64,000 bases of DNA, taken from positions 46,005 through 110,004 of the forward strand of contig CAWHRD010000004.1 in the NCBI GenBank assembly GCA_963831745.1, in the 5' to 3' direction. Both the position numbers and the translations under genes were made by a program. How positions within the stretch are numbered: the stretch's first letter is position 1; each line of letters opens with the position of its first letter. The DNA is from an uncultured Chloroflexia bacterium (GTDB lineage: Bacteria; Chloroflexota; Limnocylindria; Limnocylindrales; CSP1-4). The notes under the pieces were generated by a model. That model was not told the DNA's origin. It made no database searches and saw nothing but the letters and a program-made list of their open reading frames with translations. Shown piece by piece: positions 1 through 64,000 of this stretch.

Positions 1-1188
1 GTGGGCCTCGACTCCGGGATCCTGATGCACCCCCAGATCTGGGTCACGTCGGGCCACGTCGCCGAGTTCAACGACCCGATGGTCGAGTGCGCCACCTGCA
101 AGCGGCGCTACCGCGTCGACGAGTTCGCCGGGACCGAGGACCTCGGCCCGAAGGAGCTGCTCGATCCCGGGATCGTGGGCCGCCTCGGGCTGGCCTGCCC
201 GAACGACGGCGGGCCGCTGAGCGCGCCGCGCCGCTTCAACCTGATGCTCAAGACGTTCCTCGGCCCCGTCGAGGACGAGGCGGCCGTCGTCTACCTGCGC
301 CCCGAAACCGCCCAGGGGATCTACGTCAACTACCGCAACGTGCGCGACACGGCCCGCAAGAAGATCCCCTTCGGGATCGCCCAGGTCGGCAAGGCGTTCC
401 GCAACGAGATCAGCCCCGGCAACTTCGTCTTCCGGATGCGCGAGTTCGAGCAGATGGAGATGCAGTACTTCGTCCACCCCGAGACGGCGTCCACCCACTT
501 CGAGGACTGGCTGCCGCGGCGCAGGGCGTGGTACGAGGCGTACGGCGTGGCACCCGAGCGGCTCCGCTTCCGCGAGCACCGCGCCGACGAGCTGGCCCAC
601 TACGCCAAGAAGGCCATCGACGTCGAGTACCGCTTCCCGTTCGGCTGGAAGGAGCTCGAGGGGATCCACAACCGCGGCGACTGGGACCTGGGCCGCCACG
701 CGAAGGAATCCGGGGAGAACCTGGAGTACTTCGACCCGGCGACCGAGGAGCACTACATCCCCTGGATCATCGAGACCTCGGCGGGCGCCGACCGGGCCGC
801 CTTCACCTTCCTCATCGACGCCTACCGGGAGGAGGAGGTCCGCGGCGAGAAGCGGGTCGTCCTGGGGCTCCATCCCGATCTCTCGCCGTACAAGGTCGCG
901 GTCCTGCCGCTGCTCAAGAAGCGCGGCGAGATCGTCGAGATGTGCCACCGCATCAAGGACGACCTCAAGCGCCACGCGATGGCGGTCTACGACGACACCG
1001 CCGCGATCGGCAAGCTCTACCGGCGCCAGGACGAGATCGGCACGCCGTGGTGCGTCACCGTGGACGTGGACTCGCTGGACGACGGCAACGTCACGGTCCG
1101 CGACCGCGACGCGATGACCCAGGAGCGCATCGGCGCCGGCCAGGTGACGCGCTACATCCTCGACAAGCTCGAGGCGGCGCGGCCCTGA
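1..1188 (+). CDS. glyQS: Glycine--tRNA ligase (class II, dimeric type), C-terminal about 395 aa; 5' end truncated by the window edge
   Basis: Open frame from base 1 to the stop at 1188. The translation carries class II aaRS core motifs (FRNEISPGNFVFRMREFEQMEMQYF) and an anticodon-binding C-terminus typical of GlyRS. Confidence 0.85.
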   Translation: MGLDSGILMHPQIWVTSGHVAEFNDPMVECATCKRRYRVDEFAGTEDLGPKELLDPGIVGRLGLACPNDGGPLSAPRRFNLMLKTFLGPVEDEAAVVYLRPETAQGIYVNYRNVRDTARKKIPFGIAQVGKAFRNEISPGNFVFRMREFEQMEMQYFVHPETASTHFEDWLPRRRAWYEAYGVAPERLRFREHRADELAHYAKKAIDVEYRFPFGWKELEGIHNRGDWDLGRHAKESGENLEYFDPATEEHYIPWIIETSAGADRAAFTFLIDAYREEEVRGEKRVVLGLHPDLSPYKVAVLPLLKKRGEIVEMCHRIKDDLKRHAMAVYDDTAAIGKLYRRQDEIGTPWCVTVDVDSLDDGNVTVRDRDAMTQERIGAGQVTRYILDKLEAARP

Positions 1189-45843: not shown

Positions 45844-45891
45844 CGTGCCTCCGGTGGTGGCCCGGCCCATGGGCGGCGCCCGCCCGGCGAG

Positions 45892-47268: not shown

Positions 47269-47296
47269 CGTCGTGCTCCTCGGTCGACTCGGCGGG

Positions 47297-49600: not shown

Positions 49601-49655
49601 GGCGCTCCTCCGGGGGATCAGGGGTGTCGCCGGGATCGGCGACCGGGGCGGGGGA

Positions 49656-50468
49656 TCATGCGGGGATGACGCGGACTCCGCGCCGCTTGAACGTCCTGAG
49701 GGTGCGCTCGTCGAGCGTGGCGTCGGTGACGAGGATGTCGATGTCCTCGAGGCGTCCGGCCCCGATGAACGAGCGGGTTCCCAGCTTCGTCCCGTCGGCC
49801 AGCAGGATCACCTCGCGGGCCCGCGAGAGCACGAGCTGCTTCGTGTAGGCCTCCGACGGGTCGGTCGTGCTGAGGCCGTCCTCGACCGACAGCGCGAACG
49901 TGCCCATGAATGCGCGATCGACGTGCAGCTCGTCGAGGAGGTGCCGGGTCAGGGGTCCGACGACGGCCCGGCTCGTGGCTCGGAGCTCGCCGCCCAGCAT
50001 GATCAGGCGCGGCCCGCGACCGACCAGCTCCGTCGCGACCGGCAGGCTGTTCGTCACGACCGTCAGCCGGTTCCAGCCGTGCAGCAGGCGCGCCAGGGCG
50101 AGGACCGTGCTGCCGCTGTCGAGGTAGACCGTGTCGCCGGGGGAGAGCAGCTCAACCGCCCGGGCCGCGATCCGCGCCTTTTCCCCGGCGGCCGCGCCCG
50201 CCTTGACATCGAAGTGGGGCTCGTCGAGCCGCTGGTCGGCCGCGACGGCCCCGCCGTGAACCCGCCGCAGCCGGCCGGCCGCCGCGAGGGCGTTCAGATC
50301 GCGTCGGACCGTTGCCTGGGAGACCCCGAGCGCCGCGCTCAGCTCCTCGAGGCGGACGGCCCGGCGCGCGTCGACCAGGGCCTCGAGCCGCTGCCGCCGG
50401 GCCGCGGCGAGGTCGAGGCCGGTCGCCGAGCTGGGCGAATCATGCACGATCTTCCATGACATGCTCAT
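49656..50468 (-). CDS. DeoR/GlpR family transcriptional regulator
   Basis: N-terminal HTH (LSAALGVSQATVRRDLNALA) and a DeoR C-terminal sugar-phosphate-binding domain. Confidence 0.8.
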   Translation of the reverse strand: MSMSWKIVHDSPSSATGLDLAAARRQRLEALVDARRAVRLEELSAALGVSQATVRRDLNALAAAGRLRRVHGGAVAADQRLDEPHFDVKAGAAAGEKARIAARAVELLSPGDTVYLDSGSTVLALARLLHGWNRLTVVTNSLPVATELVGRGPRLIMLGGELRATSRAVVGPLTRHLLDELHVDRAFMGTFALSVEDGLSTTDPSEAYTKQLVLSRAREVILLADGTKLGTRSFIGAGRLEDIDILVTDATLDERTLRTFKRRGVRVIPA

Positions 50469-50559
50469 ACTCTAGCAGGATTGTGCGGGACCATGCAAGA
50501 ATAGGTGGCGAGCGGAGCGTTGCGCTTCTGGACGGAACGCCCCGAAGCCGATGAAGGAC

Positions 50560-50616
50560 CCCCCGGGCGGACCTCGAACCCCCGGGCGGACCTCGAACCC
50601 CCGGGCGGAGGTCGAA
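50560..50616. repeat. Three tandem 19-nt repeats (CCCCCGGGCGGACCTCGAA) about 90 nt upstream of the deoR-family gene
   Basis: Units at 50560, 50579 and 50598; the third has 2 mismatches. Confidence 0.55.
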
Positions 50617-51376
50617 CTCGATCAAATGCTCGCCCTCCGAGCCGTATGTAGGATGGGTCGGCAGCGGGACGGGCCGGTGGCTGGTGTCGGAGCGTGGGCG
50701 CCGGCGACCGACTCGATCAGATCCTCCGTTGGCCGGACTTTTGATCGAATGGCGACCCGCGGACATCGCATACGGTTCGGCACGCGAACATCCGATCCAG
50801 TGACGCGCCGCCGTGGACCCAGCGCCAGCCGTGGATCCAGCGCCAGCCGTGGATCTGCCGCCGCGGCCGCCGTCGCGCTCGCCCCGGGAGAGCGCCGCCC
50901 GCGGTGGATCTGCCGCTGTGCTGGACGGACCAGGGCCTCGACGTCCAGGTCGCGGCGTTCCAGCGCCGCCCGATCGCGTTCCCGGTCCGCTACGTCGTCC
51001 TCAACGGCCCGTTCGTCGGCGTCCGGAGCGCGAAGCACCGAGACGACAGCGTCCCGGGCGGTCGCCGCCGGGCCGGCGCGTCGCCGTCGCCTCGTCAGAC
51101 GCCGTGGACGGCCGGCGCGAGCTCCTCGATGAGCGCCGCGCGATGGCCGCGTCGACGGCCCCCCGGGGCGGAGCCTCGCCTCGCTCTCGAGCGACGGCTC
51201 GACCCCGACACGGTCGTCGCTCGTCGTCGGCGACAGGGCCGACGGGATCGCCGCCGCCGTCGCCGTCGCCGGGCGAGGGCCCGGGGCGACCGTCGCCCGG
51301 CCATCGGCCATCGACGAGCGTTGCGAGCGGGTGGCGGCGGCGGGGCGGCAACGTGACGCAAGCGCAACCTCGCCTG

Positions 51377-51424
51377 TTGACAGGGCGATTCGCGACCCAT
51401 ACTCTTCGTTAATCGATTATCGAG
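51377..51424 (+). promoter_or_regulatory. Candidate sigma-70-type promoter (-35 TTGACA, 17-nt spacer, -10 TACTCT) followed by the palindromic operator TTAATCGATTATCGAG
   Basis: -35 at 51377-51382, -10 at 51400-51405 and the perfect palindrome TAATCGATTA at 51410-51419. The same module recurs at 62393-62442. Confidence 0.5.
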
Positions 51425-51574
51425 GACCAAGCCGTCGGCACGGCCCGACGACAGTGGAGGAGTGTCCGACTCGATGCCCGGCTGCATCACGATGATCGAC
51501 CCGGGGCGTGCACAGCGGTTCGGCGCCGTCGTCCATCGCGATCGCGTCCCGCCCCGACCCAGGGGCGCCGGCTG

Positions 51575-52447
51575 ATGGACTTCGTCACCCAGTCCGTCGT
51601 CATCGGCCTCACCGAGTATGCCCCCCTCGTCCTCGCCGCGATCGGGTTCGCCCTGCTGTACCGCCTGAGCGGCCTCATCAACGTGGCCTATTCGGAGACC
51701 ATCACGCTCGGCGCCTACTTCGGGATGTGGATCAACACGACGTTCGGCCTCGACTTCTACATCGCGCTGCCCTTCGCCGGCCTGATGGGAGGGGTGGTGA
51801 GCGTCGCCACCTACCTGCTCCTCTTCCGGCCGGCCAAGCTGCGCGGCGTCGGGACGCTGGAGATGATCATCATCTCGTTCGGGCTGTCGATCTTCCTGCG
51901 TTACGGGCTGCAGTTCTTCTTCGGCTACCCCGTGCGCTTCTTCGACGTCCCGCCGCCCGATACGATCTACGTGCTCGGCGTCGGCGTGGGAACGTTCCGC
52001 GTGCTCGCCCTCGCCAGCGTGCTCGTCCTCGCGTTTCTCCTCTACTGGTTCATCCAGCGATCCAGCCTCGGCCTGCAGATCCGGGCCCTGGCCAGCGACG
52101 AGGACCTCGCCCAGGTCAGCGGGATCCGGCCGCTCGCCGTCACCGTGCTGATCTGGTTCATCGCAGGTGTCGCCGGCGGCCTGGCCGGCGCATACCTGGG
52201 AGTCGGGTCGGCCGTCGCGCCGCTGCTCGGCTGGCGGCAGTTCCTGTTCATCCTGCTCGTGGTCCTCGTCGGGACGAGCTGGGGGCTCGGCGGCGTCATC
52301 GTCGCCGGGGTGGTGGCCGGCGTGGGGCTGGCCGCCATGACCCTGGAGTTCAGCTCGGTCCTGTATGGCCAGCTCGTCCTGATCGCCGCCTTCGTCATCG
52401 TCCTGAAGTGGCGCGGCCGGCGGCTCGCCGAGACTGCGAAGGTGTAG
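51575..52447 (+). CDS. Branched-chain-amino-acid-type ABC transporter permease (LivH family)
   Basis: 290 aa, polytopic, with a LivH-like conserved loop. Confidence 0.85.
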   Translation: MDFVTQSVVIGLTEYAPLVLAAIGFALLYRLSGLINVAYSETITLGAYFGMWINTTFGLDFYIALPFAGLMGGVVSVATYLLLFRPAKLRGVGTLEMIIISFGLSIFLRYGLQFFFGYPVRFFDVPPPDTIYVLGVGVGTFRVLALASVLVLAFLLYWFIQRSSLGLQIRALASDEDLAQVSGIRPLAVTVLIWFIAGVAGGLAGAYLGVGSAVAPLLGWRQFLFILLVVLVGTSWGLGGVIVAGVVAGVGLAAMTLEFSSVLYGQLVLIAAFVIVLKWRGRRLAETAKV

Positions 52448-52451
52448 GGCG

Positions 52452-53390
52452 ATGCTTCCTTCGTTTCTGATCTCGGGGCTGTTCGGGCTCGTGATCGTGA
52501 TGGGCCTGGCCCTGCTGCTTCACCTCCAGCTGGGGCTCGCCCGGATCGCCAACTTCGGCGTGGTCGGGTTCTTCGGGCTCGGGATGTACGTCTTCGGCGT
52601 GCTCTACGTCAAGGTCGACTGGCCGTTCGGGGAGCCGTGGCAATTCCTCGCCTGCGCCGCCGCAGCGACGATCGTCGCCGGCCTCGCCGGCCTCGTGGTC
52701 GGGTGGATCATCTCCGACCTCGACACCGATGGAGTGCTCGTCGGCACCCTCGGCTTCGCCACCGCCGTCGGCATCCTCGCGACCACCGAGGCGGACCTCA
52801 CCGGCGGCGCCGAGGGGATGGGCGGCCTCGTCTTCCCCTACGACGTTGGCACCGTCAAGGACAACGAGTCCCTGTGGCTGCTGATCACGACCATCGTCAT
52901 CGTCGCGATCCTCGCCTTTGTTTGGCAGGTGCATCGCTCTCCGTACGGCCGCCTCCTCATCGCGGTGGGCGGCAACGAGCCGCTGGCCCGCAGCCTGGGC
53001 AAGCCGACCTTCCGGGCCAAGCTGTGGCTGTTCGCCCTCACCTCGGCGGTGATGGGGCTCCTGGGGGCGCTCGACGGGGTCATGGTGCACTTCCTCGACC
53101 CGGCAAACATCGGGATCGACGTGACCCTCGCCGCCATGGTCGGGCTCATCCTGGGAGGGACCGCCCGAGCCTTCGGTGCGGTGGTCGGCGTCATCCTCGT
53201 CGTCGGCTTCTTCGACATCGTGGTCCAGTTCTACCTGCCCCTCCCCAAGGACTGGTACAGCCAGGCCGTGCCCGTCCTGCGGGAGGCGGCGTTCGGCCTG
53301 ACGCTGATCGTCGTCCTGCTGTTCCGGCCGCTCGGCGTCCTCGGCGACATGCGGCGCGACAAGCTGATGAGGCAACTCCATGGTCGCTGA
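52452..53390 (+). CDS. Branched-chain-amino-acid-type ABC transporter permease (LivM family)
   Basis: 312 aa, polytopic; it follows livH with a 4-nt gap. Confidence 0.8.
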   Translation: MLPSFLISGLFGLVIVMGLALLLHLQLGLARIANFGVVGFFGLGMYVFGVLYVKVDWPFGEPWQFLACAAAATIVAGLAGLVVGWIISDLDTDGVLVGTLGFATAVGILATTEADLTGGAEGMGGLVFPYDVGTVKDNESLWLLITTIVIVAILAFVWQVHRSPYGRLLIAVGGNEPLARSLGKPTFRAKLWLFALTSAVMGLLGALDGVMVHFLDPANIGIDVTLAAMVGLILGGTARAFGAVVGVILVVGFFDIVVQFYLPLPKDWYSQAVPVLREAAFGLTLIVVLLFRPLGVLGDMRRDKLMRQLHGR

Positions 53391-54189
53391 GGCGGTGGCG
53401 TCGCCCGTCGTCGGCGCCGTAGCGGCAACGCGTCCCCGGATCCGGATCCAGGGTGCCGCCAAGAGCTTCTCGGGCCGGATCGTGGTGGACGTCGACGAGC
53501 TCGTCCTCGGCGACGGGCCGATCCAGGGCCTCATCGGGCCGAACGGCGCCGGCAAGACGACGTTGATGCGCATGATCATGCACTCGACGTCGCTCGACCG
53601 CGGCACCATCTCCCTCCTGCCGCCGGGGGGCGGCGAGGTGGTGCTCTCGAGCCTGCACGCGCACGAGATGGCGCGGCACGGCGTGGTGAAGAGCAACCAG
53701 GTCATCATGGACTTCGACAAGCTGACGATCTGGGATTCGCTCCTGCTCGCTGCGGCCGAGACCAGGTACGAGCAGCCGCACCGGATCTTCAGCGAACGGA
53801 CGGTCTTCCGGCGGCACGAGGACGAGATCCGCCATCACCTGGACTTCTTCGGGTTCGGCGACCCGACGGCCTTCGCCCTGTCGGCCGGCGAGAAGAAGCT
53901 CCTCGACATCGTCCGCTGCCTGCTCCTGCGTCCCACCTTCCTCCTGCTCGACGAGCCGACGGCCGGCCTTCCGGTGGAGCTGACCGAGAAGGTCATGGCC
54001 GTGATCAGGGAGCTTGCCTCCGCCGGCACCTCGGTGGTGATCGTGGAGCACGACCTCAACGTCATCTGGAACTACTGCGACGAGGTCCTGTTCATGGCCG
54101 AGGGGAAGGTCGTCCTGCGAGGCGACCCGCAGTCGATCCGCGAGAACAGGACCGTGGTCGAGAAGTACCTGGGGGAGGGCCATGTCTGA
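53380..54189 (+). CDS. ABC transporter ATP-binding protein (LivG family)
   Basis: Walker A GPNGAGKTT, signature LSAGEKKLLDI and Walker B LLLDEPTAGL. Confidence 0.85.
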   Translation: MVAEAVASPVVGAVAATRPRIRIQGAAKSFSGRIVVDVDELVLGDGPIQGLIGPNGAGKTTLMRMIMHSTSLDRGTISLLPPGGGEVVLSSLHAHEMARHGVVKSNQVIMDFDKLTIWDSLLLAAAETRYEQPHRIFSERTVFRRHEDEIRHHLDFFGFGDPTAFALSAGEKKLLDIVRCLLLRPTFLLLDEPTAGLPVELTEKVMAVIRELASAGTSVVIVEHDLNVIWNYCDEVLFMAEGKVVLRGDPQSIRENRTVVEKYLGEGHV

Positions 54190-54898
54190 CGCGGCCCGAC
54201 CGGTCGCCCTCGAGGTGGAAGGCCTGCGCAGCGGCTACCACGGGGTCACCGTCCTCAAGGGGCTCGACTTCGCCGTGGGCAACGAGGTCTTCACCGTGCT
54301 CGGCGCCAACGGGGCGGGCAAGACCACGCTCCTGGCGACGCTGGCCCGGCTCATCCCTCTCATGGCGGGAACGATCCGGTTCCAGGGCGAGGACGTCTCG
54401 ATGTTGCCGCCGTACGAGACGGCGGCCCGGGGGGTCGGCTACGTGCCCCAGGAGAAGGGCACCTTCCCGGATCTCACCGTCCTCGAGAACCTCGACGTCG
54501 GCGGGATGATCGGCAAGCGCTCACGTGAGGAGCGGATGGGAGAGGTGTTCGAGCTGTTCCCGGACCTCCGCGCCCTCCGGGCCCAGCGGGCAGGGACCCT
54601 CAGCGGCGGCGAGTCGCGGATGCTCGCCTGCGGGCGGGCGCTCATGCAGGACCCCCGGATGCTGCTCCTCGACGAGCCCACGGCCGGCCTCTCGCCGCTC
54701 TACGTCGACATGTTCTTCGACAAGATCAGGGAGATCCACGAGACCAAAGGCGTCGCCATCGTCCTGGCCGAGCAGAACGCCACCAAGGCGCTCCAGATCG
54801 CCGACCGGGTGATGGTGCTGAGCCTCGGACAGGCGTTCGCCGTGAAGGACGCGGCCGAGCTGACGACCCAGCAGCTCAAGGAGGGATACCGGATCTGA
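54182..54898 (+). CDS. ABC transporter ATP-binding protein (LivF family)
   Basis: Walker A GANGAGKTT, signature LSGGESRML and Walker B LLLDEPTAGL. Confidence 0.85.
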   Translation: MSDAARPVALEVEGLRSGYHGVTVLKGLDFAVGNEVFTVLGANGAGKTTLLATLARLIPLMAGTIRFQGEDVSMLPPYETAARGVGYVPQEKGTFPDLTVLENLDVGGMIGKRSREERMGEVFELFPDLRALRAQRAGTLSGGESRMLACGRALMQDPRMLLLDEPTAGLSPLYVDMFFDKIREIHETKGVAIVLAEQNATKALQIADRVMVLSLGQAFAVKDAAELTTQQLKEGYRI

Positions 54899-54941
54899 CG
54901 ACCCACGTTTCCGGGCTACGACAGCGCAGGAGGAGAACGCA

Positions 54942-56375
54942 ATGAGGGTCAGTCGCGTCCAGTCGAGCCGCGTCACGGTGGTGATCGCGGTGCTCGCCCT
55001 GGTGGCCGGCGCGTGCGGGGGCGGAGCGACCGCGTCGCCCGCAACGACGGCGGCGCCAAGTCAGGCCGCATCTGGGGCGCCTGCGTCCCAGGCGCCTGCC
55101 AGCGAATCGCCGGCGGCAGGCACGCCGGTGAACGTCTGCGAGCTCGCCTACGTCACGGGCGAGTTCGCGCCGTACGGGCCGGCGCTCAGCGCGGACGTGG
55201 TCTTCCCGGTCAAGAAGGTCATCAACCTCGATCCGCCGTTGGGCCGCCCGTGGGTGAACGTCAAGGAGGACCTCGGGACGGTCGGCGAGGCCCAGGCTGC
55301 CAAGGCCTGCCTCGAGAATGACGGTGCCGAGATCGTGGTGAGCATCGCCCACGGGTACCGGAACTATCGCGACTACATGATGCAGTACTGGGAGGAGAAC
55401 GACTCGCCGCTCGGCCCGTCGATCCACGGCGGCCTCATCCCGGGCAACCTCGGAGGCAAGGCCGCAGAGCCGATCTTCCGGGCGCAGGGCCTCGACGAGG
55501 GCCTGGGCGTCTACGCCGCCGAGTACGCGGACACGATCGGCGCCAAGAAGGTCGTGATCTTCGCCACCCAGGTGGCGGGCTTCCAGCTCGCAGCCAACGC
55601 GGCCGAGAAGGCCGCCAAGCTCTTCAACATGGAAGTCCTTGCCCGCATCAACGAGCCGGCCGAACAGACCTCCTATGCGGCCGACGCCCAGAAGATCGCG
55701 GGCCTCAAACCGGATGCGGTCATCGTGCAGGCGGGCTCGGTGGAGTCGGCCATCCTGATCAAGCAGGCGGCCGAGGCCGGCCTCGTGACCGCCTGGATCG
55801 GCGAGACCGGCTGGAGCCAGGCGGAGTTCATGAACCGCCTCGACGCCAAGACGATCGGCTCGCAGAAGGGCGTGGGCTACGCGGCCTTCTCGGCCAACAC
55901 GACGACCCCCGCGTGGACGTTCTTCCAGCCCTTGCGGGACGCCTGGGTCGCCGAGTCCGGGGTCGCCGCCAAGGACTACTACGGGGCGGACAACCCGTAT
56001 GCCTTCTCGGCATACGACGTCCTGGTCATGACTGCCCTCGCCGTGGAGTACGGAAAGTCGTACAAGGCGAGTGCGTGGGCACCGGCCATGCACACGATCG
56101 GCGACCCGCCGGGCGACAAGTGCTACACCTACGCCGACTGCCTGGCGCTGATCCGGGCCGGCAAGGACATCGACTACGAAGGCGTCACCGGCCCCGGCAC
56201 CTACACCGACGGTGGCGTCAACGCCGTCACCCCCACGTACACCGGGTTCGGCACGGACAAGAAGGCCGTGGCGCCCGTGCTTCTCGATCCCCAGAAGGCC
56301 CTCGAGATGCTCGACCAGGTCAAGACCGTCGCCGAGTGCGACAAGCCGGATCCGCCCAATACCTGCACGTGGTAG
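54942..56375 (+). CDS. ABC transporter substrate-binding lipoprotein (Leu/Ile/Val-binding-protein-like, type I PBP); unusually long (477 aa) and encoded last in the operon
   Basis: Lipobox LALVAGACGG, a Pro/Ala/Ser linker, then a type-I periplasmic binding fold. Confidence 0.8.
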   Translation: MRVSRVQSSRVTVVIAVLALVAGACGGGATASPATTAAPSQAASGAPASQAPASESPAAGTPVNVCELAYVTGEFAPYGPALSADVVFPVKKVINLDPPLGRPWVNVKEDLGTVGEAQAAKACLENDGAEIVVSIAHGYRNYRDYMMQYWEENDSPLGPSIHGGLIPGNLGGKAAEPIFRAQGLDEGLGVYAAEYADTIGAKKVVIFATQVAGFQLAANAAEKAAKLFNMEVLARINEPAEQTSYAADAQKIAGLKPDAVIVQAGSVESAILIKQAAEAGLVTAWIGETGWSQAEFMNRLDAKTIGSQKGVGYAAFSANTTTPAWTFFQPLRDAWVAESGVAAKDYYGADNPYAFSAYDVLVMTALAVEYGKSYKASAWAPAMHTIGDPPGDKCYTYADCLALIRAGKDIDYEGVTGPGTYTDGGVNAVTPTYTGFGTDKKAVAPVLLDPQKALEMLDQVKTVAECDKPDPPNTCTW

Positions 56376-56406
56376 CCGTCGAGAACCCCACGCTCTGACG
56401 GAGATC

Positions 56407-56445
56407 GAAGGGGGCTCTCCCGCCAACCGGCGGAGGGCCCCCTTC
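56407..56445 (+). terminator. Long imperfect GC hairpin about 30 nt after the binding-protein stop; candidate terminator of the ABC operon
   Basis: gaagggggctctcccgcc-aacc-ggcggagggcccccttc. Confidence 0.45.
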
Positions 56446-56553
56446 CTGCGCAGGGCGGCAGCCCGTCGCGCAACGTGCGGGGCGGCGGACGCCGCCCTCG
56501 ATCGAGGGCAACCTCCGAGCACCGAGGCCCGCGGCGGGCCCGAAGGAGGCGCC

Positions 56554-57231
56554 GTGACAGCGCAGCCCGAGCTCATCTCGCGCAGCGTCCTGGCGGACCA
56601 GGTGAAGGACCGCCTGCTGCAGGACATCCTCGCCGGGCGCTATCCCCCCGAGGCCCGGATCGTCGAGACGAGCCTGGCGCGCGAGCTGGGCGTCAGCCAG
56701 GCCCCGGTCCGCGAGGCGCTGCGCGGCCTCGAGGCCCTGGGGCTCGTCGAGATCCTCCCGTTCCGCGGCGCCCGGATCCGGCGCCCGTCGATCGGGGAGC
56801 TGCTCGAGGCGTACACCGTCCGCTTCGAGCTCGAGGCGCTGGGCGCCCGCCTCGGCGTGCCCCGCATGACGGACGCGGACCTCGCCGACCTCGAGGCGCT
56901 CGGCGACGAGATGCAGCGCGCCGCCGCGGCCGGCGACCGCCACCAGGTCGCCGTCGCCGACGCGATGTTCCACGCCCGGCTCCTCCACCTCGCCGGCAAC
57001 GCGACCCTCGAGCGCGTCTGGCGCTCGCTCGAGCCGTTCAGCCGGACCTACATCACCCTCGTCGCGCCCGGCGCCGACGCCCACTGGACGGCCGACCTCC
57101 ATCCCCGGATCCTCGCCGCCCTCCGCACCCGCGACGCCGAGCAGGTCGTCGCCGCCCTCCGCGAGCACTTCGACGAGGTGGCGGCGCACCTGGCGGACAC
57201 GTGGCATGGCGCACGACATGGGCCCGGCTGA
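56554..57231 (+). CDS. GntR family transcriptional regulator (FadR/FCD subfamily), copy 1
   Basis: wHTH (SLARELGVSQAPVREALRGLEALGLV) plus an FCD C-terminal domain. The GTG start is preceded by GAAGGAGG. Confidence 0.8.
   Translation: MTAQPELISRSVLADQVKDRLLQDILAGRYPPEARIVETSLARELGVSQAPVREALRGLEALGLVEILPFRGARIRRPSIGELLEAYTVRFELEALGARLGVPRMTDADLADLEALGDEMQRAAAAGDRHQVAVADAMFHARLLHLAGNATLERVWRSLEPFSRTYITLVAPGADAHWTADLHPRILAALRTRDAEQVVAALREHFDEVAAHLADTWHGARHGPG
56565..57205 (+). repeat. 641-bp exact direct repeat, copy 1 (covers most of GntR copy 1)
   Basis: Identical at DNA level to 57872..58512. Confidence 0.8.
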
Positions 57232-57790
57232 CCCACCCGCGGCCGTGCCTCGGGACCGGCGTGGGGCGGTCTCGCCGGAGTCCGCGGCGGTCCGGTTGGC
57301 CCGCGACTGCTACCTCGACGACCGGCACGTGTACGGCTGCGCGGAGACGGTGCTCGTCGCCCTCAAGGCCGCGTACGGCCTCGACGACCCGCTGGACTCC
57401 TCGGCGGCAATCGCCCTCAACGGCGGTCTCGCCTGGAGCGGGGGGCCGTGCGGCGCGCTCACTGGGGCGGCGATCGCGGTCGGCATGCTCGCCGAGCGGC
57501 GGCTCGGCGAGCATGCACGGGCGAAGCTCGTCGCGCGCGAGGTGATCGCGGCGCTTCTCGATGCGTTCGTCGTGGAGCACGGCGCCGTCGACTGCCGGGA
57601 CCTGGTCGGCGTCGACCTGCGGGCGCCGGGCGGGCACCAGGCGTTCATCGAGAGCGGTGCCTGGCGGGACGGCTGCCTGCGGCAGATCGAGTTCGTGGTG
57701 GGGCGGCTGGCAGCCCTGGCGGATCTCGCCGAGTGGGACAGGACGGTTCGCACGATCGAGGCGCCGCCCGGCGGCCGACTCGGCGCGTAG
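57206..57790 (+). CDS. C_GCAxxG_C_C family putative redox-active protein
   Basis: YGCAETVLVAL...GGPCGALTGAAIAVG, with downstream Cys residues (VDCRDL, DGCLRQI). Confidence 0.65.
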   Translation: MAHDMGPADPPAAVPRDRRGAVSPESAAVRLARDCYLDDRHVYGCAETVLVALKAAYGLDDPLDSSAAIALNGGLAWSGGPCGALTGAAIAVGMLAERRLGEHARAKLVAREVIAALLDAFVVEHGAVDCRDLVGVDLRAPGGHQAFIESGAWRDGCLRQIEFVVGRLAALADLAEWDRTVRTIEAPPGGRLGA

Positions 57791-57863
57791 ACTGCGGGAG
57801 TGGCGCGACCGGGCGGGGGCGGATCGCCCGGTGACCCGGGCGCCGCCGCGTCGAGGAGGATCG

Positions 57864-58571
57864 ATGACCGGGCCCGAGCTCATCTCGCGCAGCGTCCTGG
57901 CGGACCAGGTGAAGGACCGCCTGCTGCAGGACATCCTCGCCGGGCGCTATCCCCCCGAGGCCCGGATCGTCGAGACGAGCCTGGCGCGCGAGCTGGGCGT
58001 CAGCCAGGCCCCGGTCCGCGAGGCGCTGCGCGGCCTCGAGGCCCTGGGGCTCGTCGAGATCCTCCCGTTCCGCGGCGCCCGGATCCGGCGCCCGTCGATC
58101 GGGGAGCTGCTCGAGGCGTACACCGTCCGCTTCGAGCTCGAGGCGCTGGGCGCCCGCCTCGGCGTGCCCCGCATGACGGACGCGGACCTCGCCGACCTCG
58201 AGGCGCTCGGCGACGAGATGCAGCGCGCCGCCGCGGCCGGCGACCGCCACCAGGTCGCCGTCGCCGACGCGATGTTCCACGCCCGGCTCCTCCACCTCGC
58301 CGGCAACGCGACCCTCGAGCGCGTCTGGCGCTCGCTCGAGCCGTTCAGCCGGACCTACATCACCCTCGTCGCGCCCGGCGCCGACGCCCACTGGACGGCC
58401 GACCTCCATCCCCGGATCCTCGCCGCCCTCCGCACCCGCGACGCCGAGCAGGTCGTCGCCGCCCTCCGCGAGCACTTCGACGAGGTGGCGGCGCACCTGG
58501 CGGACACGTGGGCGGCAAGCCTGCCCGGCGCCACGCTCGCGATCCCGGTCGGCGAGCCGGCCCCGGGCTGA
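57864..58571 (+). CDS. GntR family transcriptional regulator (FadR/FCD subfamily), copy 2 (differs from copy 1 only at the extreme N- and C-termini)
   Basis: RBS GAGGAGGA before the ATG. The 641 internal nt are identical to copy 1. Confidence 0.8.
   Translation: MTGPELISRSVLADQVKDRLLQDILAGRYPPEARIVETSLARELGVSQAPVREALRGLEALGLVEILPFRGARIRRPSIGELLEAYTVRFELEALGARLGVPRMTDADLADLEALGDEMQRAAAAGDRHQVAVADAMFHARLLHLAGNATLERVWRSLEPFSRTYITLVAPGADAHWTADLHPRILAALRTRDAEQVVAALREHFDEVAAHLADTWAASLPGATLAIPVGEPAPG
57872..58512 (+). repeat. 641-bp exact direct repeat, copy 2
   Basis: Identical at DNA level to 56565..57205. Confidence 0.8.
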
Positions 58572-58689
58572 GGACGGCGCGCATCAACCCCGCGCGATCA
58601 GGCCCGTCCCGCGCGCCAGGGTTCCCGGCCGGGTCCGCGCCCGATCCGCACGCTCGGTACGGCTCGCCCTCCCTCGCGGACCGGGCGGC

Positions 58690-59637
58690 TCAGGCGTCGG
58701 CGCGGAGAATCGCCCGCACCTGCTCGGCGACGCGCGACGCCGACAGGCCGTAGATGTCGAGGAGGGCGTCGTTCGGACCCGACTCCGGATAGAGGTCCTG
58801 CAGGCCGATCCGGCTGACCCGGGTGGGTCGGTGCTCCCCCAGCGTCTCCGCCACCGCGCCGCCGAGCCCGCCGAGGACCGTGTGCTCCTCCACGGTGATG
58901 ACCCGGCCCGTCCGCTCGGCGGCCGCGACGATGGCCTCGACGTCGAGGGGCTTCAGCGTCGCGACGTGGAGGACGTGGGCGTCGATGCCGTCGGCGGCGA
59001 GGAGGTCGGCCGCGTCGACCGTCCGCGGCGTCTGGGCGCCGGTGCTGATGAGCGTGACGTCTCGGCCCTCCCGGACGACCTCGGCTCTCCCGAACCGGAA
59101 GATGTGGTCGTCGGCAAAGAGCCGCTGGGTGGGGTCGCGGACGAGGCGCACGTAGCACGGTCCCTCGTACGCGGCCGCCCAGCGCAGGGCCTGGGCGGCC
59201 TCGACATCGTCGGCTGGGGCGACGCTGACCATGCCCGGCATCGCCCGCATGATCGTCAGGTCGTCGACGATGATGTGGCTCATCCCCGTCTGCCCCGTGA
59301 AGAGCCCGGAGTAGCTCGGCGTGATCTTCACGTTGGCGCCCGTCTGGGCGATGAGCACCCGGATCTGGTCGAGAGGCCGGACCACGGCGAACGAGACGAA
59401 CGTGCTGATGAACGGCACCAGGCCCATCGTCGCCATGCCGGCGGCGACGCCGAGCATGTTCTGCTCGGCGATCCCCATCTGGAAGTACTTGTCCGGGTGG
59501 GCCTTCTCGAAGATGTCGGCCCGGGTGGAGCTGCCGACGTCGCCGTCGAGCATGACGACGCGCGGGTCGTCGTCGGCGATCGCGGCAACCGTCTCGCCGA
59601 AGATCTCCCGCATGGCGCGTCCGATCGGCAGGGTCAT
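58690..59637 (-). CDS. Transketolase, C-terminal subunit (split transketolase; Pyr plus C-terminal domains)
   Basis: 315 aa (MTLPIGRAMREIFGE...GIAEQNM...). ATGA overlap with the upstream N-terminal subunit. Confidence 0.85.
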   Translation of the reverse strand: MTLPIGRAMREIFGETVAAIADDDPRVVMLDGDVGSSTRADIFEKAHPDKYFQMGIAEQNMLGVAAGMATMGLVPFISTFVSFAVVRPLDQIRVLIAQTGANVKITPSYSGLFTGQTGMSHIIVDDLTIMRAMPGMVSVAPADDVEAAQALRWAAAYEGPCYVRLVRDPTQRLFADDHIFRFGRAEVVREGRDVTLISTGAQTPRTVDAADLLAADGIDAHVLHVATLKPLDVEAIVAAAERTGRVITVEEHTVLGGLGGAVAETLGEHRPTRVSRIGLQDLYPESGPNDALLDIYGLSASRVAEQVRAILRADA

Positions 59638-60899
59638 CGCGAAGCTCCTTCGCCGACCGGGTCCGGCTCGCCGAGCTCGGCCATCGCCTGGGCGAGCTCC
59701 TCGGGCTTGATGACTCGCGTGTGCCAGTAGTAGTGGCCCTCCATGAACGAGACGCCCTTCCCCTTGACCGTGTGGGCGATGACCGCGGTCGGGCGGCCGT
59801 CGTCGCCGTCGGCCGCCGTGCCGAGGACGCGGAGGATGTCGGGCATGTCGTGGCCGTCCATCTCGAGGACCCGCCATCCGAAGGCTTCCCACTTCGCGAC
59901 GAGCTCGCCCGGCACCTGGGGCGGGATGCGGCCGTCGGGCCCGTCGCCCGGCCAGCCGTACTGCTGCAGCCGGTTGTGGTCGACGATCGCGACGAGGTTC
60001 GAGAGCCGGTGGCGCGAGGCGGCCATGGCGGCCTCCCAGACCTCCCCCTCCTGGCACTCTCCGTCGCCGAGCATGACCCAGGCCCGCACGTCTCGGCCCG
60101 TGAGGCGGGCACCGAGCGCCATCCCCATCGCCGCCGAGATCCCCATGCCGAGCGACCCGCTCGACATGTCGAGCCCCGGCAGGCGGGTCATGTCGGGATG
60201 GCCCTGGAGGCGCGAGTTGGCGGCGTCGAACGTCGCGAGCTCCTCGACGGGGAAGTACCCGCGGAGCGCCATCGCGGCGTAGAGGCCGATCGACGAGTGG
60301 CCCTTCGACAGGACGAAGCGATCGCGATCCGGCCAGGCGGGCTCGTCGGGCCGGATGCGCAGCATCCGGAAGTAGAGCGCGGCGAGCATGTCCGCGGCCG
60401 AGAGGGGGCCGCCGATATGGCCGGCCTTCGCGATGTAGACGCTCCGGATGACCTCGACCCGGATCCGGCGCGCGACCTCCTGGAGGCGGGCGATCTCGCC
60501 GGCGTCCACGCCGGCGGCGAGCGACCCGCTCATGACCGGCCCTTCCGCTCGTACGACCCGGGCACCACCGGCGGGGAGAAGAAGCAGACGAGCTCGAGGG
60601 GCTCGGGCCCGTCCGATTTCGGTCGCGTGGAACGTGCCGACCGGGACCCAGACCGTCACGCCGGGCTCGACCTCCGCGGTTGCCTCGGGCGTCACGATCC
60701 GGCCGCGCCCCGCCGCGCAGTAGATCGTCTCCTCCTGCGTGTCGTGGACGTGGCCCGCCGGCTTCGAGCCGGGAGGGAAGATCGAGACCCCCATCGAGAC
60801 ACGCTCCGTCGGCGCGTTGTGCGGCCCAACGTACGTGTACCAGGCGCGCCCGGGCAGCGGGAAGAGCTCGGCCTCGTCGCGAGCCACTCGCTTGATCAT
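59634..60899 (-). CDS. Cupin-domain protein fused in frame to the transketolase N-terminal (ThDP-binding) subunit; alternatively an internal restart at ATG 60533 gives a stand-alone TktN
   Basis: N-terminal about 100 aa cupin (GHVHDTQEETIYCAAGRG...VPVGTFHATEIG) with no stop before MSGSLAAG...GHIGGPLSAADM...GDGECQEG (transketolase N-terminal motifs). Confidence 0.75.
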   Translation of the reverse strand: MIKRVARDEAELFPLPGRAWYTYVGPHNAPTERVSMGVSIFPPGSKPAGHVHDTQEETIYCAAGRGRIVTPEATAEVEPGVTVWVPVGTFHATEIGRARAPRARLLLLPAGGARVVRAEGPVMSGSLAAGVDAGEIARLQEVARRIRVEVIRSVYIAKAGHIGGPLSAADMLAALYFRMLRIRPDEPAWPDRDRFVLSKGHSSIGLYAAMALRGYFPVEELATFDAANSRLQGHPDMTRLPGLDMSSGSLGMGISAAMGMALGARLTGRDVRAWVMLGDGECQEGEVWEAAMAASRHRLSNLVAIVDHNRLQQYGWPGDGPDGRIPPQVPGELVAKWEAFGWRVLEMDGHDMPDILRVLGTAADGDDGRPTAVIAHTVKGKGVSFMEGHYYWHTRVIKPEELAQAMAELGEPDPVGEGASR

Positions 60900-60949
60900 G
60901 CGACACCTCTTGGGTCCGTGCGGATTTGGGGTGGGCGGTGGGCGTGGGG

Positions 60950-62044
60950 TCAGGCCGGCCGGGCGTCGGGATCGGGCAGGACGAGGTCGCGGATCGCCGC
61001 CTGCAGGTCGTGATATGACTTGACGAAGGTGCGCAGCGTGCGTGCGCTCGCGCCGAAGGCCTCGAACTCGTCGGGGGTCATTCCGTCCGGTTCGTAGGCC
61101 CGGCGGAAGTCGGGGACGCGCTCGTAGAGGTCGGCGATCAGCGCCGGGTCGACCGGCACGTCCATGCGCGGCTCGGGGGCGATCCCGCTCTTGTTGAAGC
61201 GGACCTGCCAGGGGTGGGGGAGGGTCATGCTCACGTCGCCGCCCACCAGCTCGGTCCAGTGCAGGCGGTGGCGGTACGCCGCGGCCAGCATCCGCGAGCG
61301 GTAGCCTCGCTCGCGGAAGATGCCGTACGCGCGCTTGAAGGCGGCGATCCCCGCCCAGTTCGGCGCGTCGGGGTGCACTGCGAGGTCGTCCCGCTCGACG
61401 AGGACCTTCATCCAGTCGTCGAGGCGGCCGATCATGATCGTGACGATCGGCGACATCGACGCAGTGTCGCCGCCGGCTGCCGCCCGCCGGGCCAGGCCGC
61501 GCTCCACGGCCTCGGCGGCGGCGACCGCCTGGGCGACCGTGAAGCTCACCGTGGCGTTGATGTTGACGCCGCGGAAGGTCGCCTCCTCGATGGCCGCGAT
61601 GCCGGCCGCCGTCGCCGGGAACTTCACCTGGATGTTGGGGGCGAGCCCCGCGAAGCGGACCGCCTGGTCGACCATCCGGACCGGGTCCCGATGGTTCGCC
61701 GGGTTCGTCTGGACGGAGAGACGGCCTGCGCTTCCGTTGCGAGCTTCGAACACCGGCTGCAGGATCCCGGCACCCCGGGAGGCCATCTCCTCGATGATCG
61801 CCCAGGTCAGCTCCACCTCGGACCAGGCGGGGTTGGCCGCGGCCATCTCGTGGACGCGGGGCGCCCAGTGGGCCCGTTCCTTCTTCATCACGTCGAGCAC
61901 GATGCTCGGGTTCGACGTCGCGCCGGTCGCTCCGCGCTCGACCGCGTATGCCAGCTCGTCGACGGCGCAGGAATTGTTCCAGTACTGGGTGGGCGTCTCC
62001 TGGGTCATTCGCAGGAGCGGGCTGTCGAGCGCGGTCATGACCAT
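60950..62044 (-). CDS. Transaldolase family protein (second copy in the window, long form)
   Basis: TQYWNNSC...TSNPSIVLD...QVKFPAT: transaldolase motifs. Start at the ATG giving MVMTALDSP. Confidence 0.75.
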   Translation of the reverse strand: MVMTALDSPLLRMTQETPTQYWNNSCAVDELAYAVERGATGATSNPSIVLDVMKKERAHWAPRVHEMAAANPAWSEVELTWAIIEEMASRGAGILQPVFEARNGSAGRLSVQTNPANHRDPVRMVDQAVRFAGLAPNIQVKFPATAAGIAAIEEATFRGVNINATVSFTVAQAVAAAEAVERGLARRAAAGGDTASMSPIVTIMIGRLDDWMKVLVERDDLAVHPDAPNWAGIAAFKRAYGIFRERGYRSRMLAAAYRHRLHWTELVGGDVSMTLPHPWQVRFNKSGIAPEPRMDVPVDPALIADLYERVPDFRRAYEPDGMTPDEFEAFGASARTLRTFVKSYHDLQAAIRDLVLPDPDARPA

Positions 62045-62392
62045 GGGGTCACCTCTGCGTGGAAGCGTGCCGGTCGGGCGCCAGGATGGGGCCGATGCAG
62101 GACGCCGCCCAGCTTCCGCCGATCTTCCCGGCGACGACGACCAGGCGTCGGACCGTCGTGGGCCTTGCCCTGCCGCGTGTTCGCCCCCATCCGCCTCCCT
62201 GTTGTGGATCGCGCGTCTCGCGTGCAGGCACATAATCGATCATCGATGCTTCTCGCGCAAGAGGGAAACTGGCGGGGTTGGCGTGGCGTCTCATCCGGGA
62301 AGACCCGGAGCGGGCTCACCCCGTGCCGGTGACCGCCGGCCGCCGCCCGTGCGCGTGCCGGCCGGCAACGAGCGGACGAAGCACGGCGAGGA

Positions 62393-62442
62393 CTTGACGC
62401 GGCCCGGCCTCGGTTCGTATCTTATCGGTAATCGATTATCGA
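62393..62442 (+). promoter_or_regulatory. Candidate promoter (-35 TTGACG, 18-nt spacer, -10 TATCTT) followed by the operator GTAATCGATTATCGAG; second copy of the module at 51377-51424
   Basis: -35 at 62393-62398, -10 at 62417-62422 and the palindrome TAATCGATTA at 62428-62437. It lies 80 nt upstream of the UPF0261 gene. Confidence 0.5.
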
Positions 62443-62521
62443 GTGTCGCGTTGCCATCCCTCGTCCCCGGATGGAGACGGATCTGGGCCGGCGCCGGGTC
62501 GAATTGCAGGAGGCTGTGCGC

Positions 62522-63772
62522 ATGGCGAGCGTCGTGCTCCTCGGGACCCTCGACACGAAGGGCGCGGAGTACGAGTTCCTGCGGGATCGCGTCCGCGACT
62601 TCGGCTGCGAGGTGGTCCTCGTCGATGCCGGCGTGCTGAGCGAGACGTCGCCCGGCGACATCACCGCGGACGAGGTGGCCGAAGCGGCAGGGGAGAGCCG
62701 GGCCGCGCTCGCCGCGGCGCATGACCGGGGCCCCGCCGTGCTGGCGATGACCCGCGGCGCCACGGAGGTCGTGCGGCGCCTCCACGCGGCGGGGCGGGTC
62801 GACGGCATCCTCGGCGTCGGCGGCTCGGGCGGCTCGTCGATCGTCGCCGCGGCGATGCAGGCGCTGCCGATCGGCGTCCCGAAGCTGCTCGTGTCGACGA
62901 TGGGCTCGGGTGACACCCGCCCGTATGTCGGCACCTCCGACATCGCGATGCTCTACTCGGTCGTCGACTTCGCGGGGATCAACGGCCTCTCGGAGAAGAT
63001 CCTCACCAACGCCGCCGCGGGGATCGCCGGCATGGCGAAGGCCTCGGCGGCCTTCACGTCGCGCATCCCGCCGAAGCCGCTGATCGGGGCCACGATGTTC
63101 GGGGTCACCACGCCCTGCGTGACGATCGCCCGCGAGTGGCTCGAGGCCCACGGCTACGAGGTCCTCGTCTTCCACGCCACGGGCTCCGGCGGGCGCTCGA
63201 TGGAGGCCCTCATGAAGGCCGGCTTCATCAGCGGGTCGCTCGACGTCACGACGACCGAGCTCGTCGACGAGCTGGTGGGCGGCGTGCTCTCGGCGGGGCC
63301 CGACCGGCTCGAGATGGCGGGCGCGCTCGGGCTCCCCCAGGTCGTGTCGCTCGGGGCCCTCGACATGTGCAACTTCGGGCCGCTCGAGACGGTCCCCGCC
63401 CGCTTCCGGGAGCGCAACCTCTACGTGCACAACAGCAGCGTCACGCTGATGCGGACGACCGAGGAGGAGTGCGCCGAGCTGGGTCGGATCATCGCCGGCA
63501 AGCTGAACCGGGCGACCGGCCCCCTGACGGTCTTCGTCCCGCTCGGCGGCGTGTCGATGATCGCCACGCCGGGCGGGCCGTTCCACGACCCCGCGGCCGA
63601 CGCGGCGCTGGTCCACGAGCTCCGGGCCGGGCTGCGGCCCGACGTCGAGGTCGTCGAGATGGCCACCGACATCAACGACCCCGCCTTCGCCATGGCGATG
63701 GCCGAGCGCCTCGACGCGCACTACCGCGCCTGGGCAGCCGCGAAGGCGTCGGACGCAAAAGGGCACGCATGA
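62522..63772 (+). CDS. UPF0261 / Tm-1-like ATP-binding domain protein
   Basis: [24 protein letters not shown]... is the characteristic UPF0261 N-terminus. SD GCAGGAGG 8 nt upstream of the ATG. Confidence 0.75.
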
Positions 63773-64000
63773 ACGGGAGCGAGGCGCTGGCGCGGCTCCG
63801 CCGCACGCTCGACGAGGGCGGCGTCATCATGGGCGCCGGGGCCGGGACCGGCCTCTCGGCCAAGTGCGCGGAGGCCGGTGGGGCGGACCTCATCATCATC
63901 TACAACTCGGGCCGCTACCGGATGGCCGGCCGAGGCTCGCTGGCCGGCTGCATGCCCTACGGCGACGCGAACGCGATCGTCATGGAGATGGCTGGGGAGG
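63769..64000 (+). CDS. Phosphoenolpyruvate-hydrolase-like (PEP-utilising TIM-barrel) family protein, 3' truncated by the window edge
   Basis: ATGA coupling to the UPF0261 stop. The N-terminus ([38 protein letters not shown]) is the conserved partner of UPF0261. Confidence 0.65.

Follow-up and report, generated by a model that had tools for sequence, protein, structure and literature searches.

Transcription regulators of the GntR family recognize palindromes with the consensus NyGT-N-ACNy, typically TnGTnnnACnA (PMC4494728). BioR, a FadR-subfamily GntR protein of the Alphaproteobacteria, has the site TTATMKATAA, with AT instead of the GT/AC boxes, and was left out of the family motif alignment because it lacks those boxes (PMC4494728). 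Here we describe a 20-bp palindrome with the symmetric consensus CTCGATAATCGATTATCGAG, which occurs at three sites (O1, O2, and O3) in a 64,000-nucleotide stretch of DNA from an uncultured Chloroflexia bacterium of the Limnocylindria (contig CAWHRD010000004.1, positions 46,005 to 110,004; "the window" below is this whole stretch). The sites lie upstream of a Liv-type importer operon, of a UPF0261/PEP-hydrolase-like operon, and of the transaldolase-cupin-transketolase (tal-cupin-tkt) operon that diverges from the latter. We predict with reasonable confidence that O1, O2, and O3 are bound by one factor and that this factor is the FCD-type GntR repressor encoded in the same cluster.

The locus resembles those of the FadR/FCD GntR repressors (FadR, DgoR, LldR, PdhR, and McbR) in several respects. 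Both GntR copies in the window have the same winged-helix and FCD layout, and the nearest solved structures are the FCD regulators 7xp0 and McbR 4p9f. As in the FadR/FCD family, there is a palindromic operator that overlaps the promoter, a local catabolic and transport cluster, likely autoregulation, a divergent gene pair, and one or two sites per promoter (PMC4494728). Unlike the sites of that family, the element here has the core TAATCGATTA, with A:T at the places of GT/AC, and 18 to 20 bp are conserved, with TCGA recurring every 7 bp. In form, the BioR site resembles TAATCGATTA as well as a variant, TTATCGATAA, that is found in three related loci (L049, L062, and L066); in contrast to the present system, BioR controls biotin synthesis in another phylum, and its site is a 10-mer. 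By analogy, BioR is a precedent for GntR operators outside the family consensus. Among named NCBIfam models, the PhnR type (TIGR03338, phosphonate utilization; 2.4e-32) scores highest for the window GntR, but its 112 bits are far below the cutoff of 271.5, so the protein is not a PhnR-type member, and no phosphonate genes were recognized in the cluster. As judged from sequence, this is a GntR/FadR-type system in every feature compared except the GT/AC consensus, and its motif is non-canonical.

The analysis began with the claim, made from the letters of the window, that two near-identical promoter-operator modules share the 15-mer TAATCGATTATCGAG (the original prediction). The 15-mer is indeed identical at both promoters, and TAATCGATTA within it is a perfect palindrome. 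P1 reads exactly as described, with the -35 hexamer TTGACA (51377 to 51382, plus strand), a 17-nt spacer, the -10 hexamer TACTCT (51400 to 51405), tcgt, and the 15-mer at 51410 to 51424. P2 also has the layout described for it, TTGACG (62394 to 62399, plus strand), an 18-nt spacer, TATCTT (62418 to 62423), atcgg, and the 15-mer at 62429 to 62443, but it had been placed one base too low at both ends. A consensus promoter scanner called P2, matching both hexamers as read (9/12), and missed P1 because TACTCT agrees with TATAAT at only 3 of 6 positions. When up to 3 mismatches are allowed, the window contains five matches to the 15-mer, representing three independent places, where 0.15 matches are expected, and none of 100 shuffles reached five; this excludes a chance origin of the repeated 15-mer. 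Other parts of the claim stand with qualification. GC content is lower at the sites, but the supposed AT-rich islands are a modest drop, to 58 to 64% in 100-nt windows versus ~70 to 75% around them. The hexamers and the operator are alike at P1 and P2, whereas the remainder of the two modules has no common sequence, and for that reason they are not a segmental duplication. Finally, the 10-nt palindrome said to lie 4 to 5 nt past the -10 hexamer is real, but it is part of a larger operator of 20 bp, which begins at or beside the last -10 base.

The extent of the operator was determined from 80 genome loci around homologues of the cluster's substrate-binding protein, taken with 10-kb flanks (1.52 Mb), which are from Limnocylindria/Chloroflexota with some Actinomycetota (cited below by L numbers). 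The closest relatives of the substrate-binding protein are from uncultured Chloroflexota/Limnocylindria. The 15-mer is present with no more than 2 mismatches in 73 of the 80 loci, at recurring positions and in both orientations, and these positions indicate that the full element, and functional unit, is the 20-bp palindrome CTCGATAATCGATTATCGAG. With up to 5 mismatches to the 20-mer, the related loci contain 186 sites, from which the symmetric consensus was derived, where ~1 is expected; three shuffled sets together yielded 2. Conservation is 99% for the central ATCGAT, 82 to 98% for the AT dinucleotides on either side of it, and ~75% for the outer TCG/CGA. All 75 loci that retain the region upstream of livH have at least one operator, and the five loci without one are contigs that begin inside the operon. 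The original prediction had named scatter of the motif over intragenic positions as the observation that would count against it. Instead, 177 of the 186 sites (95%) are intergenic, in DNA that is ~86% coding, as are all three sites in the window, and several of the nine apparently intragenic sites stem from over-extended start codons. The perfect 18-mer palindrome occurs in no natural site across the 1.5 Mb, one half always being degraded. In the literature, a search for the motif turned up nothing but unrelated primers and sites.

A weight matrix built from the other genomes only, with the window left out, identifies exactly three independent sites in the 64 kb. O1 (TTCGTTAATCGATTATCGAG, 51405 to 51424, 32.2 bits) and O2 (ATCGGTAATCGATTATCGAG, 62424 to 62443, 35.0 bits, higher than any other match in the window) each match the consensus at 18/20 positions. 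O1 covers the last base of the P1 -10 hexamer and the predicted transcription start, and O2 begins directly after the P2 -10 hexamer. O3 (62228 to 62247, GCACATAATCGATCATCGAT on the plus strand) is weaker, at 22.7 bits, with a good right half and a poor left half; its core, TAATCGATCATCGAT at 62233 to 62247, adjoins the homologous transaldolase gene (TAL2) in six relatives (L008, L016, L058, L019, L024, and L025). Apart from hits on these three sites displaced by 7 nt, everything in the 64 kb scores below the shuffle maximum of 12.2 bits. The displaced hits are secondary matches produced by the TCGA repeats inside the operator (at 62431, 17 bits, and at 51412, 14 bits). The small regulon originally proposed is thus borne out by three sites, all intergenic and all in the cluster, with the addition of O3, the operator at the divergent promoter, which had been missed; the regulon is larger in relatives. 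We tentatively place O3 over the minus-strand promoter of tal-cupin-tkt, with a candidate -35 hexamer TTGCGC at 62255 to 62260, a 17-nt spacer, and a candidate -10 hexamer GATTAT at 62232 to 62237.

The operator has a fixed place relative to a conserved promoter, TTGnnn-17/18-TAnnnT, in the relatives, which supports the promoter-plus-operator interpretation. Sites of 15 bits or more number 222, and 144 of them are preceded by TTGnnn-16..19-TAnnnT with the -10 hexamer ending no more than 2 nt from the operator edge, a pattern that by our rough estimate from base composition would be met by chance at well under 1% of positions. The livH promoters of the relatives align as cTTGCAt-17 nt-TACTATC followed by CTCGATAATCGAT(g/t)ATC, and in the window's own lineage as TTGACA-17-TACTC followed by TTCG(T/G)TAATCGATTATCGAG. 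The TTGACA of P1 is kept at the equivalent position in L008, L016, L032, L058, L081, and L085, and TACTC or TAGTC is kept in the orthologous promoters, while a layout like that of P2, TTGACG..TAT(G/C)TT with ATCGGTAATCGATTATCGA, recurs in L037, L046, L048, L124, L137, and L155. At such promoters the operator would span roughly -7 to +13, a position at which a bound protein would be expected to occlude RNA polymerase. The P1 spacer keeps CGATTCGCGA at 51386 to 51395, as do L008, L016, L032, and L058; it resembles the operator right half, CGATTATCGA, and may be an auxiliary half-site or merely reflect the common ancestry of these close promoters.

The genes downstream of P1 and P2 are those originally assigned to them, and in relatives, too, the motif lies at the first genes of the operons. 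P1 heads an operon of livH (51575 to 52447), livM (52452 to 53390), livG (53380 to 54189), livF (54182 to 54898), and the substrate-binding protein gene (54942 to 56375), all on the plus strand, with the GntR genes at its end. The Pfam matches are BPD_transp_2 (twice), ABC_tran (twice), and, for the binding protein, Peripla_BP_6; the gene calls of this block (51575 to 56375) are backed by third-codon-position GC, and its synteny is kept in the 80 loci. P2 heads the UPF0261 kinase-family gene (62522 to 63772, plus strand; Pfam UPF0261 and UPF0261_C) and a PEP-hydrolase-like gene (Pfam PEP_hydrolase) that starts at 63769 and runs off the window at 64000. The divergent minus-strand operon begins with TAL2 (60950 to 62044; TAL_FSA, 9e-34), continues with a cupin and a transketolase N-terminal subunit in one open reading frame (59634 to 60899), and ends with the C-terminal subunit of the split transketolase (58690 to 59637); the Pfam matches of these two reading frames are Cupin_2, Transketolase_N, Transket_pyr, and Transketolase_C. 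The TAL2 reading frame is open to 62233, but homologues align only from about residue 57, and the conserved part begins near 62044.

Regulon membership was scored in the related loci as the fraction of genes whose upstream 300 nt contain an operator. This fraction is 100% for an EamA transporter, 82% for transaldolase, 82% for the cupin that heads cupin-tktN-tktC, 81% for livH, 77% for UPF0261, and 52% for a 590-amino-acid PEP-utilizer-domain protein, and it is 0% for the internal genes livM, livG, livF, tktN, tktC, aldehyde dehydrogenase, and x297. Operators precede the first genes of 5 to 6 transcription units. The genes added to the regulon in relatives, which are not in the visible part of the window, are a CoA-acylating dehydrogenase of the methylmalonate-semialdehyde type, EamA, the 590-amino-acid PEP-utilizer, and RpiB (coordinates listed for the added genes are L016, 16110 to 17636; L009, 5350 to 6354; L016, 19205 to 20971; L019, 5022 to 5576; and L067, 11527 to 12243). 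In one actinobacterial locus, L067, the added genes also include one of the TauE sulfite-exporter family, which adjoins the transporter.

The original prediction had proposed the cluster's GntR regulators as the nearest candidate repressors, and GntR is the best-supported candidate by co-occurrence, autoregulatory placement, and recognition residues. The window has two copies, both on the plus strand: copy 1 at 56554 to 57231, in the end part of the P1 operon (Pfam GntR, 7e-17; FCD, 2e-25), and copy 2 at 57864 to 58571, for which Pfam GntR and FCD match the open reading frame 57561 to 58571 and the start codon follows the 235-amino-acid database protein P0122. Both lie in the P1 operon, so that the regulator is encoded among the genes it is predicted to regulate, and the palindromic operator is found at the promoters of the targets and of the regulator's own operon. 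Of the 75 loci with an operator, 55 also have a GntR/FCD gene. The operator turns up again in an independent collection of 80 metagenome contigs chosen around the GntR gene, often directly upstream where GntR heads its unit (L099, L102, L107, L108, L114, L119, L130 to L132, L144, L147, L149, and L150), and in two Nocardioides loci (L066 and L078) it likewise lies directly upstream of GntR. The two GntR copies are identical at the DNA level, being part of a 640-bp perfect direct repeat (56565 to 57204 and 57872 to 58511) that points to recent gene conversion or to an assembly that was collapsed or duplicated. They flank a putative redox protein gene of the C_GCAxxG_C_C family (57206 to 57790, plus strand; PF09719, 8e-17), an arrangement also found in L016, L081, and L085; two GntR copies are also present in L008, L016, and L085, and those of L008 have diverged.

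The recognition residues of GntR fit the unusual operator. Arg35 and Arg45 of FadR each contact guanine specifically, and in the family an arginine at the first position strongly prefers G:C while Asn and Gln prefer A (PMC4494728). In the window GntR the residues that align to Arg35 and Arg45 are Thr and Gln (from an alignment with E. coli FadR, whose residue numbers match those in Table 1 of PMC4494728). Replacement of the guanine-reading arginines by Thr and Gln is consistent with A:T at the positions where the GntR family has GT/AC. The relatives contain two groups of GntR paralogues, one beside the transketolase genes and the other after the PEP-utilizer gene. The two groups differ overall in identity to the window GntR (52 to 66% versus 72 to 90%) but have the same recognition helix, GTSQAPVREAL, and the same wing, FRGARVR. 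GntRs of an SQSP type accompany the TTATCGATAA cores in L049, L062, and L066, a hint of co-variation in too few loci to be used. An alignment of 15 paralogues shows two invariant histidines, H140 and H183, together with D136 and H205, which are nearly invariant; these four residues are candidates for the Asp and three His of the FCD metal/effector site.

Several observations weigh against the assignment of these sites to GntR and against details of the promoters. The operator does not fit NyGTNxACNy (PMC4494728), having the core T-A-AT-CG-AT-T-A with no conserved GT/AC anywhere among the 186 sites. Twenty operator-bearing loci have no GntR within 10 kb, so that a regulator there would have to act from elsewhere in the genome; in these loci the liv operon stands alone among unrelated genes (PAP2, short-chain dehydrogenase, triose-phosphate isomerase, and cytochromes). 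The site is directly upstream of only 14% of GntR genes, a low share that is explained by most GntR genes being internal to operons. Since GntR and the motif are both confined to the cluster, their co-occurrence cannot fully separate binding from shared cluster membership. At the level of the promoters, the -10 hexamer of P1 is weak by a consensus that is that of E. coli, and the assignment of a promoter at O3 is tentative.

The first two of these observations, together with the central CG of the operator, are what would be expected if an unlinked regulator encoded elsewhere in the genome, for example a LacI-type or global carbon regulator, bound the palindrome and GntR recognized something else. 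LacI-family operators are palindromes with a central CG (those of Cra/FruR and the cre sites of CcpA), and the sites of Cra/FruR resemble TGAATCGATTCA. The present element is like them in being an even-length palindrome with an invariant central CG that overlaps a sugar-catabolic promoter. However, no LacI-type regulator is present in any of the 80 related loci, as determined by tblastn with the DNA-binding domains of LacI, PurR, and CcpA, and no alternative regulator adjoins the liv operon in the 20 loci without GntR. In addition, the motif is limited to one gene cluster, unlike the scattered sites of a global regulator, and it frequently comes immediately before GntR genes, which is the typical mark of autoregulation, while the GntR recognition helix lacks exactly those residues that would demand G. 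We consider an unlinked regulator unlikely.

If GntR is the binding protein, it might act as an activator or a dual regulator, as some FadR-family proteins do. Many livH promoters of relatives have a second site abutting the -35 hexamer, 48 to 49 bp upstream of the first and centered near -44, which is compatible with activation. In contrast, each promoter has its best-conserved site over the -10 edge and the start, where a bound protein would occlude RNA polymerase, and P1 and P2 of the window have only this -10/start site, P1 lacking the second one. Activation or dual regulation by GntR appears quite improbable.

Even less can be said for binding by the neighboring DeoR-family regulator (49656 to 50468, minus strand), which would co-regulate the importer with its own operon. 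That operon (44755 to 50468, minus strand) consists of DeoR, a fused alpha/beta E1 (47297 to 49600), an E2 lipoyl acyltransferase (45892 to 47337), and a transaldolase, TAL1 (44755 to 45870), all assigned by third-codon-position GC and Pfam. In the window, as in L008, L016, L032, and L058, DeoR and livH are transcribed divergently, and O1 lies in their shared upstream region. But DeoR is found in only 15 of the 80 loci and never without GntR; operator and GntR occur without DeoR in 40 loci, while operator and DeoR occur without GntR in none. Where DeoR is instead divergent from GntR (L002, L019, L025, L040, L052, and others), there is no copy of the 20-mer upstream of DeoR, nor does the operator ever lie upstream of E2 or TAL1. 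The pattern of a motif that goes with DeoR and lies upstream of it is thus not observed. DeoR has a promoter of its own, TTGCA(c/t)G..GCACGATCGTGCTAGAgT, with a distinct palindrome, GCACGATCGTGC, found at 50440 to 50500 in the window and upstream of DeoR in L002, L008, L016, L019, L025, L040, and L052; its -10 hexamer (TAGAGT/TAGACT) is only 6 to 7 nt before the ATG, which points to a leaderless mRNA and a separate DeoR operator. The DeoR operon is kept beside the cluster in 15 loci, and it is unusual in combining 2-oxoacid-dehydrogenase-like E1/E2 genes with a transaldolase gene.

We give a negligible probability to an action at the RNA level (riboswitch, attenuator, or hairpin in the leader) and to a mobile or recombination element present as repeats. 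The palindrome is repeated in the locus, and a transcript with all of it could form a hairpin, but it straddles the predicted start so that only part would be transcribed, and its orientation relative to the gene downstream varies. Its length is just 20 bp, it has no flanking repeats, and it is tied to promoter hexamers. The RNA-level explanations were dropped because an Rfam search of 50400 to 64000 gave no match at E≤1 and the three leader RNAs fold no more stably than shuffles (z-scores of -0.19, +1.03, and -0.63). Nothing supports a methylation or restriction role of ATCGAT, a ClaI-type site, which is over-represented in the window (13 versus 2.8 expected) and not avoided.

In the circuit that we propose, with GntR as the repressor, a dimer of the cluster-encoded GntR/FCD protein would bind each palindrome and block RNA polymerase, O1 and O2 beginning at the end of the -10 hexamer or one base past it and covering the start and O3 covering the divergent -10 hexamer. 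A substrate or intermediate of the pathway, probably an acid bound at the conserved candidate Asp/His (metal) site of the FCD domain, would free the repressor from the DNA. Its release would switch on the importer and regulator genes, the tal-cupin-transketolase operon, and the UPF0261/PEP-hydrolase-like operon. Because the importer operon includes the regulator genes, the circuit would be autoregulated. What the analysis shows directly is the sites, their strong enrichment and conservation, their fixed placement at promoters, and the makeup of the regulon; which protein binds, that it represses, and the nature of the effector are inferred. Overall, we regard the system as a real and well-supported repressor-operator regulon, predicted from sequence and of a fairly ordinary type.

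A more far-reaching interpretation, which we put forward only as a possibility, combines a re-specified recognition code (Thr/Gln, with GT/AC changed to AT/AT), two paralogous sensors that share one operator set and integrate two signals, and an undescribed pathway. The sensors may be paralogues with near-identical DNA-binding domains and diverged effector domains (52 to 66% identity). The pathway may comprise the Liv-type importer, the UPF0261 kinase, the PEP-hydrolase-like and PEP-utilizer proteins, the split transketolase, transaldolase, and the CoA-acylating aldehyde dehydrogenase, and it may be conserved widely in Limnocylindria and in some Actinomycetota. The UPF0261 family has one characterized member, the kinase MarK (PMC12624787), and its first catalytic assignment came only in 2025. 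A sulfoquinovose-type pathway was considered, since the Pfam content partly resembles that of sulfoquinovose transketolase/transaldolase clusters (PMC11968277) and L067 has the TauE-family gene beside the transporter. Against it, neither a sulfoquinovosidase nor any known isomerase was found, and the relatives have an aldehyde dehydrogenase of the CoA-acylating, methylmalonate-semialdehyde type.

Two features of the window differ from the related loci. The cupin-tktN open reading frame encodes 421 amino acids, whereas cupin and tktN are separate genes in relatives; the cupin C terminus is out of register with the cupin of L016, where the genes are separate and overlapping, and the single reading frame is either a frameshift or assembly error or a genuine fusion. 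The segment from 50470 to 51370 is ~900 bp of GC-rich DNA with no confident gene and with tandem repeats (19 nt, three copies, at 50560 to 50617, and 18 nt, 2.9 copies, at 50805 to 50855); it looks like an insertion or a decayed gene, because the DeoR-livH spacer is only ~250 to 330 bp in relatives.

The result is a clean regulon in an uncultured lineage and involves no new principle. It offers a clear natural example of a FadR-type GntR protein whose predicted operator lacks the GT/AC boxes and whose recognition residues show the matching change. The regulon joins 5 to 6 transcription units without assigned function, which supports the view that these genes belong to one pathway. For the uncultured soil and freshwater Limnocylindria it provides a precise, testable regulatory code in the form of three promoters, their 20-bp operator, and a specific candidate repressor. 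A reporter driven by P1 or P2 and combined with GntR in a laboratory host could serve as a screen for the inducer and hence for the substrate of the pathway.

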